64,000 nt of DNA from the IMG/VR virus record IMGVR_UViG_3300027974_001530; one strand, 5' to 3'. Positions 22,336-57,504 of this stretch are shown here, piece by piece. Source of the stretch: a virus (lineage: Duplodnaviria > Caudoviricetes). The position numbers and the translations under genes were made by a program. Each line of letters starts with the position of its first letter. The stretch's first letter is position 1. The notes under the pieces were generated by a model that was given only the letters and a program-made list of their open reading frames with translations, made no database searches and was not told where the DNA came from.

Positions 22336-22712
22336 TTTTTAAAGTTTAATAAAATACCAACTTCTTGGTTTTTTGTTTCCGTTATCGGTCCCCATTCGCC
22401 TTTATAGGTAATACCTCTTACTGGTTTATTATCAATCCAAACATATTCTTCATCCTCTAAACATCTTGGTTTATCTGTAATCAAGTCATGAAACTTGAAT
22501 CCGTGTCTCCATAACCAAGCAAGAGTGGTCCCTTTATCTTTATACTCTCTAGCGGTAAAAAAAACAATTTTGTTTCCTTCATCGTAAAGTTTATTTATCT
22601 CTTCCTTGGATCCTTCGTATGGTTTTGCAATTGAGTATAGATCACTATCCTCGTTTTTTATGTCATCACATACCGTTCCGTCAATATCAATCAAATAAAC
22701 TCTTTTTTTCAT
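22332..22712 (-). CDS. HAD-superfamily phosphatase-like protein
   Basis: IDIDGTV, FFTAR, WIDNK. Confidence 0.8.
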   Translation of the reverse strand: MKKRVYLIDIDGTVCDDIKNEDSDLYSIAKPYEGSKEEINKLYDEGNKIVFFTAREYKDKGTTLAWLWRHGFKFHDLITDKPRCLEDEEYVWIDNKPVRGITYKGEWGPITETKNQEVGILLNFKK

Positions 22713-30584: not shown

Positions 30585-31007
30585 TTACAAAGATAAATGT
30601 TTTTTTGCGTTTTCTAAAAATTTCTCAATATTTTCTTTTCCTGCAGGATTTGCCGAATGAACCAAATATTTTGGTAATGGTACGTTCTTGTTTACACAAT
30701 ACTCAACAAGGAACTTTGCACAATCAAGTCCAGTTTTTTCCATAGAACCAAATTTCATATTCATTTCATCTTCAGACATACCTTCATAATCTTCAGGTTT
30801 AAAGTCGTAGTGAAAATCAGCCAGGTCGTGGTCAAATGAAACAAACTCCGGAACACCGTTATCTTCAAGGTACTGAACAAAATTATCGTAGTTTGTTACT
30901 ATATCCCAATCATTCTCCCAATAAAATTTATTGAATTCTGATGGTATTAATCTTATTGCGTCTTTTGGAATTCTGATATCATCCAAAAATAATTTATTAT
31001 TTTTCAT
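30585..31007 (-). CDS. cyclic-phosphate-processing receiver-like domain protein
   Basis: LFLDDIR.P, SFDHDL, TGLDCAKFL, VHSANPAG. Confidence 0.8.
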   Translation of the reverse strand: MKNNKLFLDDIRIPKDAIRLIPSEFNKFYWENDWDIVTNYDNFVQYLEDNGVPEFVSFDHDLADFHYDFKPEDYEGMSEDEMNMKFGSMEKTGLDCAKFLVEYCVNKNVPLPKYLVHSANPAGKENIEKFLENAKKHLSL

Positions 31008-31601: not shown

Positions 31602-31838
31602 TTAACAATAAATTTTATAAATTAAAAACCCCTCAATATCTCTAAGAATTTGATTAATACCGTTTTTGGGTGAATCCAAATATAAAAAACCACCACCATT
31701 TTTAATGGTAACAATTTTTCCGTTTGATAGGTATATCCTTTTTTTTGTTTTTTTGGTAACAACAATATCATTATAACCTTCACCAACGTTCAAGGATAAT
31801 AAAAACTTCTCGGAATCTCTAAAATCTGTCATATTCAT
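31602..31838 (-). CDS. hypothetical protein
   Basis: ORF track. Confidence 0.7.
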   Translation of the reverse strand: MNMTDFRDSEKFLLSLNVGEGYNDIVVTKKTKKRIYLSNGKIVTIKNGGGFLYLDSPKNGINQILRDIEGFLIYKIYC

Positions 31839-31842
31839 ACCA

Positions 31843-31874
31843 CAAAGATATAAAAGTTTTTTTAATAAAACAAA
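31843..31874 (-). promoter_or_regulatory. Bacteroidota-type sigma-70 promoter
   Basis: TTTG (31871-31874), 20-nt spacer, TATCTTTG (31843-31850). Confidence 0.7.
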
Positions 31875-31901
31875 AAATCCCTCCGTAAAGAAGGGATTTA
31901 A
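31873..31901 (-). terminator. terminator after the T9SS-domain gene
   Basis: AAAAAATCCCTCCGTAAAGAAGGGATTT. Confidence 0.6.
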
Positions 31902-31933
31902 TTTATTTTTATATCAAAAATATTAATATTTTT

Positions 31934-34750
31934 TTATTTAATTATTTGTTTTATTACTTGTGTTGAAAAATTTCCATTACTTACCTGAATATAATAGATT
32001 CCATCTACTATATTTAAATCACCAATATTATATAAATTAATCCCTGAAACAATATTAATTTCTTTATTAAAAATTTCAGATCCTTTTGTATCTTTAATTA
32101 TTAGTTTTCCATTACCAATCATATTTTTATTGTTTAACACAACTTGAAAATCTCCAGAACTAGGATTTGGAAATATGAGAAAATAACCTTTTGAATTTCC
32201 ATTACAAATAACATTTATTGGTCCATACTCTTTATTCACTCCGTCTATGTCATATTGAAGAAGTTTATAATAGTTATTTCCATCAATTGCGTTTTCATCT
32301 TTTGTCGTGTAGGTTAACTCTTGAGTTGAGTTTCCTGCCGAATTCAAAGTTGTTAATTTAGACCAATTAATACCATCTCTTGATTTAAGAACATCAAAAT
32401 AGTCAGAGTTATGTTCGGTTGCCGTTTTCCAATTTAAAGTAATTAAGTTGTTATTACAAGACCCATCAAAAGATAATAGTTCCACAGGAAGAGCACCATT
32501 AGTAATAATATTAAAAAATCTGGTTTGAGTTCCACAATTTGAAGCGTTTGATACCGTAACCCTAACAGAACCATTAGTTGTTGTCTGTGGCCAAGTAAAT
32601 GTAATTGATGGAGAGTTAGAATTTGGAACGTTTATCCAAAGTTGTGCGGTTACGGACTGTGTGTATGCCCATTGGTATGTTGCGTTTGCTACCGGTGTTA
32701 TTGAATAACTTTCTTGTGTTCCGGCAATTATGGTATTATTACCAGATATTGTAGACACAAAACCAACAGAAGGATTTACGGTTATTGTTGTTGAAGTTGA
32801 TGCCGAACATCCATTTGCCGTTGCGGTTAATTGATAGGTCTGTGTAGTCGTAGGAGAAGCAAATGGACTTGGAGCACTTGCATTTGTAAGTCCGTTTGAA
32901 GGTGTCCATAGATATGTTACACCGGGAGAAGACCCACAAGATGATATTGATTGTGTTATGCTCTGTCCACCAACTAAACTTCCACTTAGGACCGTTGTTC
33001 CGTTACAAGTTACCAAATAATTTGCCGTGTTGTCATTCCATATTCCTTGAGTTTCCACATTAAATGTATATGGGCCATTTGCCGATGAACCGATTGGAAT
33101 TATATTTGTTGACCCTAAACCATAAGGTCCACCTGAACCAATTACAGCCCCTAAACTATTTGTTAAAGTCCAAGAACTTTCGTCTAAGAATCCACTGGTG
33201 GAGATGGTTACAACAAGATTTCCTGGTGATGACACTCCACTAATGTTAGATATCAATTGGGTATTTGATCCGTTACATATTGTATTGGTTGCCGCACTTA
33301 TAGTTACAGTGGGATTAGGGTTAACTGTTATTGTTGTTGAAGCGCACCCACTACTAAAAAGACCTCCGTTTAGATTTCTCGCATAGTATGTAGTGGTTGA
33401 TGCAGGACTTACCGAGATGGAATTTCCAGTTGACACGAAAGTGGATGCACAACCTCCTATATACCAATAAACCACACCCAAAGCGCCATTTGCGGTTAGA
33501 GTGGTAGATGATCCATTACAAATAGTATTTTGTGTCGCAGATATTGATGTTGGGTCTGCTGGCGGGGGAGATATACAAGTTAGACCAATAGAAAAACTAC
33601 TACTTGCGCTATACCCATGAACTAATATATAGTAATTTGTTCCAATTGACGAAGTCCATGAAAATGAGGCTGATGAACTAGAACAAGCGGGCCCAAAATC
33701 ATCATTACCTCCAACACATGATAATGTTGAGCAATTAGGACCACTAAATACAGACATTTTACTATCCCATGCCGTTGCACAAAGATTTGCGGTCATAATT
33801 TGTCCGTTTCCTGAAATAACATACCAAACACCGGGTTGTGTTTGACTAACAGAACATAAACCATTTTCACCCGTTCCAGAGTTAGTTGCATTTACGGTGG
33901 TTCCTGATAGTGTTTGACCACAAGTAATTGGAGTTGAGTTACATACTAAATCGTTGGATGGGGGTGGTGGTGGTGCACAAGTTAGACAAGTAATATAAGA
34001 TGTTCCACAACTTGAAGCAGTTCCACAAGTGTTATTTGTGTTGTAATGAACAAAATATGTTCCTGAGGACGGACAAACCCAATTTAGTGGAGAGTTTCCA
34101 CTAGTTACTACAGTACCATTATAAGTTCCAGATCTAACTGTGATATATCCACCTAAATTGTAATATGATTGATATGTTTGTCCTGCAACACAAGAATAAA
34201 TTGTATTATATTCAGTTTGGTATTGACAAGTACTGATGGTTACAGTTGTTGGTGTTGATGGTGCAGTTGCCGTCATGTAAGAGGAAGTATTAGTACATGG
34301 GCCGGCAGCAACTGCGGCACAACTACCTAATACTGTTTGTCCTCCCGTAGTTGCGGTTCCGGCAACTGGTTGTATAGTATTGATTATGATAGATCCTGAG
34401 CCATTTAGAACCTGTATACGCATTTCGGAAGGGTAAGACCCTGCGAGTGTTCGGTATACTCTAATGGTTGACCCAACAGATGCGGTAAATGTAGAATTAG
34501 TAGGACCTAATCCAACACAACTTAAATTAGATAAAACGGTTACTCCGTTAACGGAAACTGCGACTGTTCCTCCATTCCACCCATCACCAAAGGTATCTGT
34601 TCGTTTAATAGTGTGGAGACATGATTGAGAAAATAAGAAAGATGAAAATAGAACAAAAAGTCCAAGCAATATATTCTTCATAGTAAAAATAAATAAAATA
34701 AAATTATTTACTCTCTTGAAGAATCTTTTTAGGAAACCCCCATCTTCCAT
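31934..34750 (-). CDS. secreted adhesin-like protein with a T9SS type A C-terminal sorting domain
   Basis: Signal peptide from the ATG at 34681 (MKNILLGLFVLFSSFLFSQ); Thr/Ser/Gly/Cys-rich beta repeats; LPVELLSF...LNWKTATEHNSDYF; IFPNPS...G.E....GIYYIQV...K.IIK. Confidence 0.9.
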   Translation of the reverse strand: MEDGGFLKRFFKRVNNFILFIFTMKNILLGLFVLFSSFLFSQSCLHTIKRTDTFGDGWNGGTVAVSVNGVTVLSNLSCVGLGPTNSTFTASVGSTIRVYRTLAGSYPSEMRIQVLNGSGSIIINTIQPVAGTATTGGQTVLGSCAAVAAGPCTNTSSYMTATAPSTPTTVTISTCQYQTEYNTIYSCVAGQTYQSYYNLGGYITVRSGTYNGTVVTSGNSPLNWVCPSSGTYFVHYNTNNTCGTASSCGTSYITCLTCAPPPPPSNDLVCNSTPITCGQTLSGTTVNATNSGTGENGLCSVSQTQPGVWYVISGNGQIMTANLCATAWDSKMSVFSGPNCSTLSCVGGNDDFGPACSSSSASFSWTSSIGTNYYILVHGYSASSSFSIGLTCISPPPADPTSISATQNTICNGSSTTLTANGALGVVYWYIGGCASTFVSTGNSISVSPASTTTYYARNLNGGLFSSGCASTTITVNPNPTVTISAATNTICNGSNTQLISNISGVSSPGNLVVTISTSGFLDESSWTLTNSLGAVIGSGGPYGLGSTNIIPIGSSANGPYTFNVETQGIWNDNTANYLVTCNGTTVLSGSLVGGQSITQSISSCGSSPGVTYLWTPSNGLTNASAPSPFASPTTTQTYQLTATANGCSASTSTTITVNPSVGFVSTISGNNTIIAGTQESYSITPVANATYQWAYTQSVTAQLWINVPNSNSPSITFTWPQTTTNGSVRVTVSNASNCGTQTRFFNIITNGALPVELLSFDGSCNNNLITLNWKTATEHNSDYFDVLKSRDGINWSKLTTLNSAGNSTQELTYTTKDENAIDGNNYYKLLQYDIDGVNKEYGPINVICNGNSKGYFLIFPNPSSGDFQVVLNNKNMIGNGKLIIKDTKGSEIFNKEINIVSGINLYNIGDLNIVDGIYYIQVSNGNFSTQVIKQIIK

Positions 34751-34839
34751 GGGCCGGTCGAGTTCACTAATAAATACGAATATAATTGGGATTAGTGGTT
34801 AATAAATCCTCGTATTGAGCAAACTATGATTTTAGTTTA

Positions 34840-36096
34840 TTATTTAATCTTCCAATCTTTAATTTCGGTTTCTATTTTTCTTTTACCGTATTTTTTTTCC
34901 ATAAGTTTCTGGTGTAAATCCCAATTTAATATAGATTCGTTTGTTTGTTCTTTCTCATCAGGAATAAGTGAATATATTTTAGAAAGTCTTTTAATTAATT
35001 TTGTTGCAACATAATTAAATCTTTCGCACTCATCAACAAAGAACCGTTCTTCTTTATTTCGGTATCTAGCAATGTGGTTTAAAAACTTATTTCTAACTTT
35101 CTCCAATCCTTCACTATTATTATCTTTAACCATATGCCCCATACCCATCATTCTCATAAATGCCGCGGCTCTATCATTCATATCCTCTGTCATTCTATCA
35201 AAAATATCTTTTTTAGCACTTATTAGATTAATATAAACCAAATCCATAAGTACATATATTTTTTTATCTTCAGACATATCTTCATAAGGTACTCCAGCAT
35301 GTGATAATAAAGAATCAATTCTATCCATTTGTTCGTGTAGTTTTTTAACTAAATTAGTATAACTAAAATATCTAATTTCTTTTAGTTCTTTAACTACTTT
35401 ATCGTTTTCAAAAAATTCTCTAAACTTTTCTTTTGTAATACCGGTTAATTTCATTCTTGTTGCAATTTCAGTTGGTCTAACAAGGTTCTCAACGTGTTGA
35501 ATAAAATAACTGTGTCTCATAAATTCATTAATCACTGGAATTCCAAAGTTTAATCCTGAACTAGTGTATGCTTGGTAATCAGCATCTTTACCTATCAAAT
35601 CCGTTTCTTTTTTTTGTTTATCAAACTTATGTTTAATTTCGTGAGCAATTACAGATATAAATTCAACCTTATCTTTACTAAAATAGTTATAAATGTCTTC
35701 AGAATCCCAATTATCCTCATTTGATCCAAAATTTAAAGATAATTCAATACTATTATCTAATTTATGCACCTTCATTAATATTTTTTTATCAAAATTAAAT
35801 TGGCTTGCAACTCCAGCAGACATCATAACAAGAGGTCCATCATAATCATCCATTTCGTTAATTTCAACTCGTAATTCTAACTCGTGTATTTTATAATCAG
35901 ATATTGTTAAATCTAAATTGTTTTCAGTAAATGTTTGTGTGGTATTGTAATCGTCCATACCTTTTAATAGATTCAAAATGATTTCATATAATTTTTCTGC
36001 TGATTCAATAATACCTTCTGGAACACCAACTGCCTCACTTAATAGATTTTTTACTATCAAGTCCATTTGTCTTTCTGTAATAATAATTTTTGTCAT
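34840..36096 (-). CDS. HExxH putative zinc metallopeptidase with MTKIIITERQ leader
   Basis: IAHEIKH with a downstream acidic residue (VENLVRPTE); TATTTAT at 36101-36107. Confidence 0.6.
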   Translation of the reverse strand: MTKIIITERQMDLIVKNLLSEAVGVPEGIIESAEKLYEIILNLLKGMDDYNTTQTFTENNLDLTISDYKIHELELRVEINEMDDYDGPLVMMSAGVASQFNFDKKILMKVHKLDNSIELSLNFGSNEDNWDSEDIYNYFSKDKVEFISVIAHEIKHKFDKQKKETDLIGKDADYQAYTSSGLNFGIPVINEFMRHSYFIQHVENLVRPTEIATRMKLTGITKEKFREFFENDKVVKELKEIRYFSYTNLVKKLHEQMDRIDSLLSHAGVPYEDMSEDKKIYVLMDLVYINLISAKKDIFDRMTEDMNDRAAAFMRMMGMGHMVKDNNSEGLEKVRNKFLNHIARYRNKEERFFVDECERFNYVATKLIKRLSKIYSLIPDEKEQTNESILNWDLHQKLMEKKYGKRKIETEIKDWKIK

Positions 36097-38093: not shown

Positions 38094-38171
38094 AATTTTG
38101 ATAAACCATTACTAGTTTTGAAAGGGGTAATGCTTTTTGTGTTAAATAAATATATGGTACTTTAACAAAAA

Positions 38172-38597
38172 TCAATCTTTATTAAAGATATTCATAATTA
38201 TTTTCTTAAAATCTTTGTTTTTTTCATTTAATGGGTTATTTGTTTTTGTAAAATACCCACATTTGGTATGTTCAAACCCATCTCTAGCCTTTTTTAGATC
38301 CGGATTAATTTCTTGATTTGTATTATATTGATATACATACATAAGACCTTTTTTAGTTTCTCCATCTCTTTTGTACATATTAAGAATGTCAACAATATTT
38401 AAATCACCTTTTAATTTAATATTAGTTTCCTCATAAAACTCCCTTATAGCCGCCTCTTTTGGGGTTTCATTTCCTTCAACCTTACCAGATGGTATGGACC
38501 ATTCATTTGGTAAAGTTTTATTCGGTGACCTTTTACAAAGTAAAACTTTATCTTTGTTTTTTACCACCACACCTGAATATCTGTTAAATTCTGCCAT
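38172..38597 (-). CDS. NUDIX hydrolase
   Basis: SGKVEGNETPKEAAIREFYEETN Nudix box; start MAEFNRY. Confidence 0.9.
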   Translation of the reverse strand: MAEFNRYSGVVVKNKDKVLLCKRSPNKTLPNEWSIPSGKVEGNETPKEAAIREFYEETNIKLKGDLNIVDILNMYKRDGETKKGLMYVYQYNTNQEINPDLKKARDGFEHTKCGYFTKTNNPLNEKNKDFKKIIMNIFNKD

Positions 38598-51777: not shown

Positions 51778-51936
51778 ATGGAAAAGAAAGAAGCAACTAA
51801 AGTCACAGGATGTCGTAAATGTAATAAAGGACAAGAAAATTTACAAATGTTTTTAGTAATCTCAGGTGGATTATTATTTTCTTTGGCAATTTACGGAGCC
51901 GTTAGATTGGTTCAAGACATCGTATCTTGGTTTTAA
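51778..51936 (+). CDS. 52-aa CxxC + TM microprotein
   Basis: Manual translation MEKKEATKVTGCRKCNKG...LVISGGLLFSLAIYGAV. Confidence 0.6.
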   Translation: MEKKEATKVTGCRKCNKGQENLQMFLVISGGLLFSLAIYGAVRLVQDIVSWF

Positions 51937-52856
51937 TCCCTATCATATTTCAAATATGGTCTTATTAGCAGATCTCCTATAACAGTCTGTAATCTAAATC
52001 CTTTACTCTTAATTCTCAATGGTTTAGATGTATCCATATGTTTTGGGAAATTGACCGATATGTCCCCATCAGGGTGTGGAACTATAAAATTATCCTTGTT
52101 AATCTCTTCTAAATTAAAAAACTTATTATAAATTAAATGTTCCCCAAATTTTTCAAATCCACTCTCATTTGTTAAACTAATTTTTAATAATAAATCCCCG
52201 TATATTCCATTACCATAATCGCCCATATCATTTAGTCTCAACATTTGTCCATCATCAATACCATGTGGTACTTTAACTTCAACTGACTTTACCTCATCTT
52301 TTGTACCAGATCCATGACAAGCATAACAAGCATTCGTTATAATTGTTCCAAATCCTCGACAAGAGTCACATGGAGATTGTACCATTTGTACGAACATTCC
52401 ACTCCCCATTTGTTTCCAAGTAATCCCTTCTCCTTTACATGTTTCACAAACTTTTTTATCACCACCAGTACCATTACAAGGATCACACTTTTCTTTTCTT
52501 TTATAATTTAACGAAACTTTTTCATTAGTGAAACTTTTTAAAACATCCACACTTAAGTTGATTACTCTTGATGGTTTTCTTTGTTGTCTAAATTGATTAT
52601 TAAACATCTCATACATATCCGAAAATTGGTCGAACTTTGAATTGCCGAATGGGTTCTTTCTTTGGATGTCATATTCTCTACGTTTATTGTCATCCCCAAT
52701 CACATCATAAGCACCAGATATTTTCTTAAACAATTCTTCATCCCCGCCTTTATCTGGGTGGTTTTCCTTTGCTAAACTTCTATAAGCCTTCTTAATTTCG
52801 TCTTGTGTTGCCGTCTCCTCAACGCCTAATATGTTATAATAATTTTCAGAGTTCAT
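51933..52856 (-). CDS. dnaJ: DnaJ chaperone
   Basis: J-domain with HPDK; four CxxCxGxG repeats; VKVPHG C-terminal domain. Confidence 0.93.
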   Translation of the reverse strand: MNSENYYNILGVEETATQDEIKKAYRSLAKENHPDKGGDEELFKKISGAYDVIGDDNKRREYDIQRKNPFGNSKFDQFSDMYEMFNNQFRQQRKPSRVINLSVDVLKSFTNEKVSLNYKRKEKCDPCNGTGGDKKVCETCKGEGITWKQMGSGMFVQMVQSPCDSCRGFGTIITNACYACHGSGTKDEVKSVEVKVPHGIDDGQMLRLNDMGDYGNGIYGDLLLKISLTNESGFEKFGEHLIYNKFFNLEEINKDNFIVPHPDGDISVNFPKHMDTSKPLRIKSKGFRLQTVIGDLLIRPYLKYDRD

Positions 52857-55310: not shown

Positions 55311-56753
55311 TTATTGTGTTTTTCTACCGTATGAAATTAAATTTCCTATTCTTTCTAAATCCTCGTTAATTTTTTTAGACTTTTTACTACTTCTTTTTTC
55401 CCCACTTTCAACTTTATTTAAAAGATCAGAAGCATCATCACTTCCTGGTCTATCTTTAACAATAGGTTGTGGAGATTTATTATAAGCCTTTTTCTTAATT
55501 TGACCTAACAAATTCTTTTCTCTAATTTCATTTCTTCTTTTGTTTGTTGGTGTTTCTACCGCATTTGCCCATTTAGGGTTGTTTCCTGTTCTTGACGATC
55601 CAAGAACATTATCTTCAACCCACTCTTTATTAGGTGCGAATTCATCGTATTCAATATTTTCTAATGCTGCTGCAGTAAAGTTTTCAACGTATTCTGCAAC
55701 ACTATCTGAAGGAACATACGCCATCTTATCCATTTCTTCTATCTCTCCATTACCCATTGGGAAATGTTTAGGTTCCATAGTAAATGACTCTTTAGATCCA
55801 TCTTTCATGTAATCTTTCATTTTTTTAGAAACTTCTTTGTAGTAATCTTGATTTTCTTTTCCTGATTTATCAAAAGATCTTTCATACTCAGAATATCCTC
55901 TAGTTTTTTTAGATGGTTTTAATTTCTCTTCGGCCAAAGTCTCAATTAAATTAACAACTTGTTCTTCACTTAATCTTACGGTTCTACCTAACTTATCGTT
56001 GAATATTTCGTACTCATACATTTTTGTTCTGAAGGTTTTTTCTCCGTCATTCCAAAAATCAGATGTTTTTTTCGCATTATCAAACATGTCTTCTTCAAGT
56101 TTTGGTTCGTACTGGAAGTCGATACCTTGAGAAAAACCTTCTCCTCCACACCATTCACATTCAGTGTCATTAAATTCGTCGTATCCTGTTCCATTACAAT
56201 GTGAACACTCCTCTTCATGATCACCATAATAAGGGTTAAACATACTTAAATCTTTATAATCATCACCTTTAAATTCTAAAAGATCAGACTCTTTCATTCC
56301 ACATTCAGAACATTCTCCCTCCATTTTCAATCCACCACACTCACAAACATCACTTTCATTAACCTCAAATTCGTAGATTGTTTCTTCTTCCATTGGCCAT
56401 TTACCTCCACATTCCATACATTCTCCACGACCTTCTTTTGTTTCTTTTTTGTTTCTTAACATTTTGAAGTCCTCTCTATCGATTCTACCATTTTTGTTTT
56501 TGTCTATATTTCTTTGTTTACCATATAGTTTTTCGCTAAGGTCTTTTTCCATACTTTCTTTTGTTTCTTTTTTGTTTCTTAACATTTTAAAATCTTCACT
56601 ATCAATTCTACCGTTTTTGTTTTTGTCTATATTTCTTTGTTTACCATATAGTCTTTCATTAAGATCTTCTTCCACATAATCAAAAGAATTTCCGGCTTTA
56701 TTGAATTTCATTGTATCGTATTTTTCGGATATTTTTCCTCTATAGTTTTTCAT
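55311..56753 (-). CDS. modular protein with duplicated EF-hand-like unit, Cys-rich zinc ribbons and many xxE sites
   Basis: DKNKNGRIDxEDF twice; CMECG, CSECG, CSHCNGTG..CEWCGGEG; TATTTAT at 56767-56773. Confidence 0.75.
   Translation of the reverse strand: MKNYRGKISEKYDTMKFNKAGNSFDYVEEDLNERLYGKQRNIDKNKNGRIDSEDFKMLRNKKETKESMEKDLSEKLYGKQRNIDKNKNGRIDREDFKMLRNKKETKEGRGECMECGGKWPMEEETIYEFEVNESDVCECGGLKMEGECSECGMKESDLLEFKGDDYKDLSMFNPYYGDHEEECSHCNGTGYDEFNDTECEWCGGEGFSQGIDFQYEPKLEEDMFDNAKKTSDFWNDGEKTFRTKMYEYEIFNDKLGRTVRLSEEQVVNLIETLAEEKLKPSKKTRGYSEYERSFDKSGKENQDYYKEVSKKMKDYMKDGSKESFTMEPKHFPMGNGEIEEMDKMAYVPSDSVAEYVENFTAAALENIEYDEFAPNKEWVEDNVLGSSRTGNNPKWANAVETPTNKRRNEIREKNLLGQIKKKAYNKSPQPIVKDRPGSDDASDLLNKVESGEKRSSKKSKKINEDLERIGNLISYGRKTQ
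56434..56658. repeat. 123-bp-period in-frame imperfect duplication
   Basis: CCATATAGT at 56521 and 56644; 41-aa period LYGKQRNIDKNKNGRID. Confidence 0.85.
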
Positions 56754-56778
56754 TTCTTTTTTTATTATAAATATATGA

Positions 56779-57504
56779 TTATCCAAGTTTATTCATTTCA
56801 CTTAAGATAATATCTTTAATAATATCCTCATGAATTTCATACTTATCACTTATTCTTTTTATTACATTTTCTACCGATTGATTCTCAAAAATGTTAAGAG
56901 CTTTGATATCACCTTGGTTACAATATGGGAAACGTTTACATTTTTTTTTAACCTGAACAAATTTTCCTCCAGGTAATTGTGTTTTGGCTCTACCTCTCCA
57001 ATTTTTCTTACTCATAGATTTAGCCCAAGCTCCTGTTGTTTCATATGATCCGGAAGATGAAGATGAGGTTGCCTCAGTTGCCTCAATTTTTTTCGGTTCT
57101 TCACCTGAAAATAAAGGTTCAAAGGATCCTGATCCTCCTGTTGCGGTCGCCTCTTTGGTTTCTGAATTATTTTTTTTAGTAGTAACTACCATTTCTAAAA
57201 AATCCTTTAATTCTTCAGGATCTTTTAAATATTTTTTCATTTCCTGTTTTATCTTGTTTTTTGATAACTTTTTGTTTTTAATAAGTTTGTACATTTCAAT
57301 TATATCCTTCTTATCTTTTAAAAAATCCATATAATGATTTTTTGTATTTTCTCCGTTATCTTCTTCTGTTTGTATTGTTGATAATAAATCGTTTTTTGAT
57401 TGGATGGCAGAGGTAGGATCTAATTGACCTCCACCCTCATAACCTCTAGCATTTGCAATTACTTCGGAAAAACTTTTTTGTATTGCCCCTTTCCAATCTT
57501 CCAT
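56779..57504 (-). CDS. hypothetical protein with repeated EAT-Ser/Gly segments
   Basis: TKEATATGGSGSF, ATEATSSSSSGSY; KKCKRFPYC. Confidence 0.75.
   Translation of the reverse strand: MEDWKGAIQKSFSEVIANARGYEGGGQLDPTSAIQSKNDLLSTIQTEEDNGENTKNHYMDFLKDKKDIIEMYKLIKNKKLSKNKIKQEMKKYLKDPEELKDFLEMVVTTKKNNSETKEATATGGSGSFEPLFSGEEPKKIEATEATSSSSSGSYETTGAWAKSMSKKNWRGRAKTQLPGGKFVQVKKKCKRFPYCNQGDIKALNIFENQSVENVIKRISDKYEIHEDIIKDIILSEMNKLG

Follow-up and report, generated by a model that had tools for sequence, protein, structure and literature searches.

What use would a phage have for a gene whose product resembles an adhesin made for the surface of a bacterium, and how are the presence and the expression of such a gene controlled? 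This question is raised by a single gene on the minus strand of a 64,000-nucleotide stretch of viral DNA (IMG/VR record IMGVR_UViG_3300027974_001530), the whole of which is referred to as the window. An initial annotation, made from the sequence of the window, had described it as a phage gene encoding an adhesin-like protein secreted through a type IX secretion system (T9SS). The reading that we favor, with a probability of about 0.55 on the evidence of the sequence, is that the gene encodes a lectin- or adhesin-like protein, hereafter the cargo, that would be exported by Sec and the T9SS and would change the surface of the infected cell, its translation being gated by a structured leader RNA that precedes the gene.

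Coding Sequence and Predicted Export Signals

The locus holds an open reading frame (ORF) of 938 codons (31934..34750, minus strand), which had been annotated as the gene. The ORF itself was recovered, but its start had been placed 69 nt too far upstream: homologues of 914-925 amino acids (aa) begin at MKN, corresponding to M24 at window position 34681, and the 23 codons 5' of M24 are a conserved non-coding leader that had been absorbed into the ORF call. Because the homologues begin at M24 and the upstream frame is not preserved among them, the coding sequence was set to 31934..34681. The features of the gene and its export signals are as follows.

31934..34681, minus strand: cargo coding sequence with corrected start and including the stop codon; 915 aa, equal to residues 24-938 of P0001
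34622..34681, minus strand: Sec signal peptide, residues 24-43; MKN, a hydrophobic core of 14-16 residues, and S before Q(S)C
31937..32182, minus strand: T9SS type A C-terminal sorting domain (CTD), residues 857-938, by TIGR04183
31875..31899, minus strand: intrinsic terminator 3' of the gene, with a 10-bp stem, a 5-nt loop, and a T-run

The signal peptide reads MKNILLGLFVLFSSFLFSQ before SC from residue 24 and is, by inspection, of the Bacteroidota type. The pattern is kept in every full-length homologue, and inspection and conservation together support the Sec signal peptide of the initial annotation. The mature protein contains 13.6% S, 13.4% T, 10.2% G, 9.7% N, and 3.2% C, in agreement with its earlier description as rich in Thr, Ser, and Cys, and the terminator of its own that had been attributed to the gene was located at 31899..31875. 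A PHROGs search with the cargo protein gave a chance-level match only.

The assignment of a type A CTD to the C-terminus agreed with three lines of evidence. TIGR04183 was aligned at residues 859-935 over its full profile (1-72/72), and the CTD alone (the last 82 residues) scored 29.2 bits against a cut-off of 23; the same model was matched by 59/59 distinct CTDs of the family, and the 95% orthologue in genome G003 scored 27.1. A profile of the family CTDs matched the solved structure of a T9SS substrate CTD (8glk_D) with an E of 2e-4. Lastly, the predicted fold of the domain (model residues 156-239) resembled the CTD of mirolase (8qb1; Z 9.3, rmsd 2.4, 76 aa), and also BT_1867 (4g5a; Z 10.3) and PorU (6za2); we take this similarity as supportive only, because the Ig-like beta-sandwich fold is common. 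The two Flavobacteriales metagenome-assembled genomes (MAGs) with the closest bacterial homologues encode SprA, the T9SS translocon. As judged from its sequence, the cargo is predicted to carry everything required of a Sec and T9SS type A substrate.

Domain Architecture of the Cargo

Between the signal peptide and the CTD, the following domains were delimited.

34295..34621, minus strand: domain 1, residues 44-152; CxH..TDTxGDGWNGG beta-sandwich with a fold like that of carbohydrate-binding modules (CBMs)
33977..34288, minus strand: domain 2, residues 155-258; Cys-rich jelly roll
33572..33955, minus strand: domain 3, residues 266-393; collagenase collagen-binding or pre-peptidase C-terminal (PPC) fold
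32642..33562, minus strand: Ig_7 (CHU_C-associated Ig-like) domain at residues 397-478, with residues 479-703 beyond it
32195..32491, minus strand: FN3-like LPVELLSF linker domain, residues 754-852; model m711932391802, VIA FN3 Z about 10

The AlphaFold models, which were computed from alignments of the family, predicted three beta-sandwiches in the N-terminal 359 residues (AF2 model m76b5b0967bfb, mean pLDDT 82), a region that holds 16 invariant cysteines. Domain 1, whose Cys, His, and GDGW are invariant across 74 sequences, resembled the calcium-dependent CBM 2xhh at a weak to middling VIA Z of 7.8. Domain 2 resembled jelly rolls of the PliG, CBM6, and HA70 types (VIA Z 6-8), and a Foldseek search of it led to SGBP-B and HA70. 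For domain 3, the VIA matches were 3jqw (Z 11.2, rmsd 2.3, 103 aa), 5sv5 (Z 10.7), and 1nqd (Z 10.5); the PPC resemblance is at the level of the fold only, with no match to PF04151 at E <= 1. Ig_7 (PF19081) scored 37.8 bits against a gathering threshold of 27.3 at residues 397-478 and in a second stretch, and part of residues 479-703 is held by the homologues of 914-925 aa and missing from forms of about 815 aa. The C-terminal 239-residue model (mean pLDDT 79) comprised an FN3-like domain and the CTD compared above with mirolase and PorU, so that the LPVELLSF linker domain named in the initial annotation acquired a predicted FN3-like fold. No catalytic domain was recognized in the cargo, and the ESM Atlas neighbours bear GBD_T9SS_assoc and PPC, which we regard as leads only. 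According to these models, the mature protein consists of successive binding-type beta-sandwiches rich in disulfides (CBM-like, jelly roll, collagen-binding/PPC-like, Ig_7, and FN3), and it is read as lectin- or adhesin-like because it contains only such domains and no enzyme domain.

The same architecture would suit a displayed helper in adhesion or nutrient capture, through which the infected cell would become attached to particles, to algae, to polysaccharide, or to host cells nearby, which would sustain the long infection of a jumbo phage or set its progeny beside new hosts. All recognizable modules of this and the other leader-linked cargos (CBM-like, PPC/collagen-binding, CUB, F5/8 type C, Ig, and FN3) bind, none is an enzyme, and invariant N-terminal cysteines in such number are as found in extracellular proteins. 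However, these cargos include no glycoside hydrolase, unlike those of Cryophage as presented in the T9SS account of PMC7468147, and a direct nutritional role is therefore less obvious. We regard such a helper role as possible but rather doubtful.

Residence in Phages and Selection

The gene had been noted as less AT-rich than its flanks, and its GC content (0.34-0.40) was indeed above theirs (about 0.28-0.31). The excess is confined to codon position 2 (0.528), while GC at codon position 3 (GC3) is 0.205, with neighbouring genes at 0.16-0.28. The elevated GC is therefore attributed to a protein rich in Thr, Ser, Gly, Ala, and Cys and not to recent import, and as a mark of recent host capture it was ruled out by the phage-like GC3. 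Compared with 11 phage homologues, dN/dS was 0.16-0.30 overall and 0.17-0.30 in the CTD; at a ratio of about 0.2, the gene is kept by purifying selection within phages.

The locus reads, in order, AAA_33 kinase, metallophosphoesterase (Metallophos), a 415-aa protein, the cargo, small ORFs, and RNA ligase, and a contig of 283 kb and several contigs of IMG/VR show this order again from AAA_33 to RNA ligase. The window as a whole encodes a phage-type thymidylate synthase, the RNA ligase, and many ORFs with only a PHROG match or none. The search of phage genomes for homologues that the initial annotation had proposed yielded 35 IMG/VR loci, to which more than 500 metagenomic homologues were added. 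T4 Gp23 is encoded by three of the homologue-bearing genomes, G002 (291,867 bp, 99% complete), G004 (166 kb, with direct terminal repeats, 100% complete), and G005 (229 kb). The assignment of the gene to a phage was thus upheld by syntenic relatives measuring 283-292 kb, of which one is 99% complete and encodes T4 Gp23, and by the Gp23-encoding genomes that carry homologues. Extra ORFs with strong TIGR04183 matches (41-53 bits) and without the leader were also seen at G005:C1:63818-68632 and G002:C1:287643-287882, and in G005 two TIGR04183 ORFs lie directly 3' of the Gp23 capsid gene.

Among GenBank phages, a megablast search with 12 kb gave no match, and the tblastn matches, which lay in four huge uncultured phages, were confined to the FN3-like linker. 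Among bacteria, for which the comparison set consisted of species-representative genomes, the relatives are only 47-75% identical and occur in MAGs of the Flavobacteriales in which SprA is encoded and Gp23 is missing; the best of them is a gene split across two contig ends of a Flavobacteriales MAG, with N-terminal domains 50-75% identical. The gene is best explained as an accessory cassette of an uncultured freshwater T4-like jumbo phage, the host of which is most likely of the Flavobacteriales type within the Bacteroidota.

The GC content above that of the flanks, and the lack of the gene in the closest relative (see below), could also be read as signs of a passenger recently captured from a host and without a role in the phage, or of an assembly chimera. 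The GC3, however, equals that of phage genes, dN/dS is about 0.2 across phage lineages, and the same position is filled in at least six independent assemblies; moreover, the gene is preceded by a phage-specific leader, for which the covariance model described below gave no match in 151 genomes of the Flavobacteriales (the order of MAG G006). We consider a passenger or artefact highly improbable, and the objection of a chimeric assembly, which had been raised with the initial annotation, is excluded by the locus order shared among those assemblies together with the phage-like GC3.

Exchange of the Cassette among Phages

Comparison with the nearest record and with locus L012 delimited one further feature.

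31842..35013, minus strand: exchangeable cassette consisting of leader, gene, and terminator

G001, the record closest to the window, is a 76-kb fragment from IMG/VR (CheckV completeness 26%) whose flanks are 95-99% identical to those of the window. It has no cargo gene: 416 bp replace window 31911-34859 and are followed by the terminator stretch, which is 100% identical and there lies 3' of an RlpA-like gene. The product of the slot in G001 is a secreted RlpA/DPBB-like protein of 121 aa (L005:1562-1927, minus strand, equivalent to about 38164-38529 of G001), and in the 283-kb relative a DPBB gene (L009:9430-9837) and the cargo gene stand in tandem; the slot seems to be reserved for exported proteins. 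L012 shows the converse, with a cassette block 91.7% identical to that of the window and flanks only 69-82% identical. In G004 and in a 520-kb contig, the similarity is limited to the gene and about 80 nt upstream of it, and the synonymous divergence of L012 from the window varies by domain, with values of 0.02 to 0.97. The replacement in G001, the L012 block, the restricted similarity in G004 and the 520-kb contig, and the uneven synonymous divergence demonstrate that the cassette and its pieces have been swapped among phages.

The stretch around the cassette is a hot spot at which genes are gained and lost. Two small ORFs on the minus strand, 30585-31007 (140 aa) and 31602-31838 (78 aa), have no counterpart in G001, with surroundings that are 88-99% identical. 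At L010 (ENA contig k141_822149, 519,707 bp), possibly a megaphage, the cargo gene lies in an unrelated, phage-like neighbourhood with SmpB, Fapy glycosylase, a methyltransferase, and many small ORFs.

A Conserved Structured Leader RNA

The region upstream of M24 contains three features.

34708..34765, minus strand: structured core of the 5' leader, helices P1-P3, about 58 nt, by covariance model R1
34687..34713, minus strand: hairpin P4 between the core and the AUG, whose 5' arm overlaps the 3' strand of P1 (its GU)
34770..34776, minus strand: TATTTAT box, a candidate -10-type promoter element whose position upstream of the leader is conserved

In the aligned upstream regions the leader follows a nearly invariant consensus, ACUCGACCGGCCCAUGG-N-A-N-AUGGGGGUUUCY ... 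RGAUUCUUCAAGUGAGU. Within the window, covariance model R1 scored 80.1 bits at the leader; the next match, at 22596-22638 (17.4 bits, E 0.032), was taken as chance. A search of Rfam 15 (4227 families) at E <= 10 returned only chance-level matches to the leader, with E >= 1 and far below gathering thresholds. We also considered that the leader might encode a leader peptide or an N-terminal extension of the cargo, and rejected this, as in some copies the ATG is changed to GTG, the stops vary, and indels of 1-3 nt occur; because start codon, stops, and frame differ among the copies, the leader is non-coding.

RNAalifold and a manual reading agreed on the three helices P1-P3. Across 83 distinct copies, 98.5% of cells were paired, compared with 32-60% in slid controls, and none of 500 shuffles equalled the observed pairing score (0/500); these values are to be read with the caveats that the sequences are related and that the alignment, A6, was fitted to the model. 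Compensatory switches were found in P1 from CG to UA (8) and from UA to CG (8). P2 was paired in all copies, with changes of the GU/AU kind only, and P3 is a hairpin of variable length, one pair of which occurs as CG (30), UA (25), UG (5), GU (2), and AU (1); in some copies, P3 has a loop of the UUCG or GNRA type or a long helical insertion. Sequence conservation of the leader is high, and its covariation is limited to P1, P3, and P4. The latter hairpin is formed by unrelated sequences in 32/35 distinct leaders, ends at a median of 2 nt before the AUG, and has a mean z of -2.2 relative to shuffles. In addition, base pairing of the invariant AUUCUUCA with UGAAGAAU at the start codon is possible in 93% of cells. 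A pseudoknot linking the loop of P2 to the UUCUUCAAG junction was considered by eye; it fits GGAAG loops and L076 (GUAG/CUAC), but the majority combination GGUAG/CUUC contains a mismatch.

The TATTTAT motif that had been pointed out upstream of the gene lies at 34776..34770; of 109 distinct upstream regions, 64 have its start at -15 to -13 relative to the leader, and 97 have it within -25 to -8. With the box, a presumed promoter element, at a fixed distance, the transcription start would fall at the first bases of the leader and is predicted at the A residues immediately ahead of CUCGACC. The leader is a conserved structured RNA with the features of a cis-regulatory leader, and its position and its AUG-proximal hairpin suggest a regulatory action.

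Leader Distribution and Linked Cargos

The leader is single-copy in the window, occurs once each in G002-G005 and not in G001, and stands ahead of every homologue that was fetched. In total, it was found in 64 IMG/VR and 106 metagenome stretches, and also in the GenBank megaphage LR745206.1 (634,780 bp). The leader-bearing stretches are L009-L046, L057-L115, L192-L296, and L298:4501-4558, and IMG/VR contigs of 436-483 kb are among the bearers. Scanning IMG/VR with the pattern GGGGGTTTY..TTCTTCAAG gave mostly chance matches and two new true leaders. A subgroup of 46-nt leaders, apparently without P3, was noted at L256, L196, L197, L206, L207, L218, L224, L230, and L248; L256 carries two leader-cargo cassettes in tandem on one contig (3519-3564 and 5090-5136).

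The genes behind the leader are not all of one family. The IMG/VR copies lie ahead of the GDGW family, to which the cargo belongs, in 49 cases and ahead of other genes in 12, and the metagenome copies in about 60 and 39 cases, respectively. All of the linked genes open with a signal peptide, at least 10 unrelated N-terminal types are represented, and CUB and F5/8 type C are among the recognizable pieces. Several are mini cargos of 110-133 aa, in which a signal peptide is followed by about 40 residues and then by a CTD-like domain that scores 22.8 bits with Por_Secre_tail, under the threshold, as at L088:1514-1912, L298:4572-4925, L212, L217, L224, L230, L249, and L259; one lies in megaphage LR745206.1, beside a tRNA-synthetase-like ORF.

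These mini cargos bear on a second explanation, in which the cargo or its CTD serves superinfection exclusion by jamming the T9SS/gliding apparatus or surface receptors, which would also spare the loss of progeny on debris. T9SS and gliding mutants of Flavobacterium are resistant to phages, and the slot is polymorphic and exchanged between phages as an arms-race locus would be; proteins of little more than a CTD behind the same leader, one of them in a megaphage, would fit a blocking function as well. A long chain of binding domains, however, is unnecessary for blocking a pore, and the CTD-like domains of the mini cargos score below the cut-off. We consider exclusion by jamming unlikely.

Three C-terminal kinds were distinguished among the cargos: the type A CTD, a short tail of the form NLxGQEV..G.V.EIY.DG..K.I[KR], and a short tail of the form YYDIGGRPV..GVYLR... 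The short tails gave no match to TIGR04183, TIGR04131, or PF18962, and their interpretation as truncated type A CTDs was not supported (hhalign probability 0.7%, no T9SS-model match). The short tail sits after the FN3-like linker, with examples in P0015, P0093, L057:7286-9358, L070:2540-3493, L076:4233-6227, L110:5922-6992, and L043:10697-12685, and may be an undescribed sorting or anchoring signal. More tentatively, the leader could belong to a new class of sensor RNAs of phages, acting as a riboswitch or through recognition by an RNA-binding protein of phage or host. It would then gate translation of one exchangeable slot and let jumbo phages and megaphages of Bacteroidota time the loading of the T9SS with a surface protein of their own, with the short tails as a second sorting signal.

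Two further genes of the window, both on the minus strand, are recorded here: that at 55311-56786 encodes a 491-aa protein with calcium-binding motifs of the EF-hand (PF00036, 30.4 bits) and dockerin-like kinds, the latter just below the cut-off (Dockerin_1, 21.9 bits), and that at 51933-52856 encodes a full-length DnaJ with a J domain, CXXCXGXG zinc-finger, and C-terminal domains.

Proposed Mechanism

According to the reading favored here, the mRNA would begin just 3' of the TATTTAT box with the structured leader of about 58 nt, and the leader together with the AUG-abutting hairpin would probably gate translation. Sec would then move the product through the inner membrane, and the type A CTD would deliver it to the T9SS of the host, which would cleave off the CTD and leave the protein anchored or released at the surface of the cell, where it would alter binding or exposure at the infected cell to the presumed benefit of the phage. 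As for the purpose of such an alteration, masking, aggregation, grazer avoidance, and jamming are candidates that nothing in the present data separates, and the sequence cannot decide among them.

Several observations weigh against this mechanism. The TIGR04183 check proposed with the initial annotation was positive for the CTD alone and for the CTDs of the family, but not for the whole protein, which scored 21.8 bits and so fell under the cut-off of 23, and PF18962 (Por_Secre_tail) gave the whole protein 18.3 bits against a cut-off of 27. The fold matches of the binding domains are generic (Z 7-11). About one-fifth of the family alleles and many other leader-linked cargos end in a short tail, implying that the canonical type A signal is not essential to the role of the slot, and the lack of the gene in G001 implies that the gene is dispensable. 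As to gating, the anti-start pairing of AUUCUUCA with UGAAGAAU is nearly without covariation and is put forward as a possibility only.

The whole-protein scores below the cut-offs and the alleles with non-CTD tails would also fit a protein that is not a T9SS cargo in practice, the CTD being only a structural Ig-like domain and the product being released by lysis or serving as a virion decoration or fibre, as Ig-like and FN3 domains are frequent on virions. However, the conserved signal peptide of the cleavable type would be unusual in a virion protein, the CTD scanned by itself exceeds the TIGR04183 cut-off and has a profile match to a solved T9SS substrate CTD, and the neighbours of the gene are of the early or metabolic type (RNA ligase, phosphoesterase, and AAA_33), with no structural module. 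Given the signal peptide and this non-structural neighbourhood, we judge a role in virions or at lysis to be improbable, and retain export by Sec and the T9SS as the preferred reading.

Significance and Comparison with Known Systems

The use of the T9SS by phages had rested on few annotations, and the present locus opens the idea to testing through an extensive natural series, in which hundreds of alleles, no fewer than 10 cargo families, and three C-terminal kinds stand behind one leader, spanning T4-like jumbo phages of 166-300 kb to a 635-kb megaphage. The leader offers a search handle for phage secretion cargo in metagenomes and is a candidate for a new regulatory RNA. A cargo made of binding modules only suggests that phages may alter how infected freshwater Bacteroidota stick to particles, cells, and phages, with consequences, if true, for aggregation, carbon flux, and superinfection in lakes.

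The core idea of a phage-encoded T9SS cargo is already known from two reports, as far as their T9SS accounts go. For Cryophage (Bellas et al. 2020, Nat Commun, PMC7468147), a variable T9SS-CTD cargo was described as a unique occurrence, and crAss-like gut phages have been recorded as carrying T9SS sorting-domain ORFs (de Jonge et al. 2019, PMC6949934). Common to these accounts and the present one are a phage-encoded type A sorting domain, a presumed hijack of the T9SS, and a basis in bioinformatics only; as described for Cryophage, moreover, the cargo lies in a flexible, variant-specific region, just as here it is present in the window and absent from G001. In contrast, the Cryophage cargos of that account are an endoglucanase, a GH39 protein, and a PA14 protein, whereas only binding modules were found here, and the carriers here are freshwater T4-like jumbo phages and megaphages with a single slot per genome. 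The slot is marked here by a structured leader, of which the T9SS accounts of the Cryophage and crAss-like papers make no mention.

In Flavobacteriia and Cytophagia, the bacterial adhesins that are type A cargo of the T9SS and the CHU_C/Ig_7 proteins (TIGR04183, PF18962, and PF19081) share with the cargo described here the signal peptide, the chains of beta-sandwiches, Ig_7, the FN3-like linker, and the type A CTD. RemA of F. johnsoniae, for example, is a lectin-like adhesin secreted by the T9SS. The gene described here differs from these in lying in a lytic-type phage, with phage codon usage, the leader, and swappable short tails. As a phage product that would enter the host envelope in the course of infection and serve the phage there, the cargo may also be likened to the Llp lipoprotein of T5, a surface modifier for superinfection exclusion that masks FhuA; the export route (the T9SS), the size, and the modular binding architecture are all different.

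The leader recalls translational riboswitches and RNA thermometers in its compact multi-helix 5' domain with near-invariant junction nucleotides, and its AUG-abutting hairpin, which shares nucleotides with P1, gives it a layout like that of a riboswitch aptamer with its expression platform. Unlike riboswitches, it is tied to the secreted-cargo genes of phages and not to a metabolic pathway. PeSL (promoter-early stem-loop) elements, which are reportedly mobile regulatory cassettes of T4-type phages, resemble it as short combinations of promoter and hairpin ahead of variable accessory ORFs that could provide a homology arm for shuffling. PeSLs, however, are present in many copies per genome and flank many unrelated ORFs, whereas the leader is single-copy per genome, always stands ahead of a signal-peptide gene, and has a three-helix core with compensatory changes. 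Set beside these systems, what is new here is the size of the family and its spread in freshwater jumbo phages and megaphages, the single polymorphic and exchanged slot, the binding-only cargo, and, above all, the conserved structured leader RNA, which belongs to no described family.

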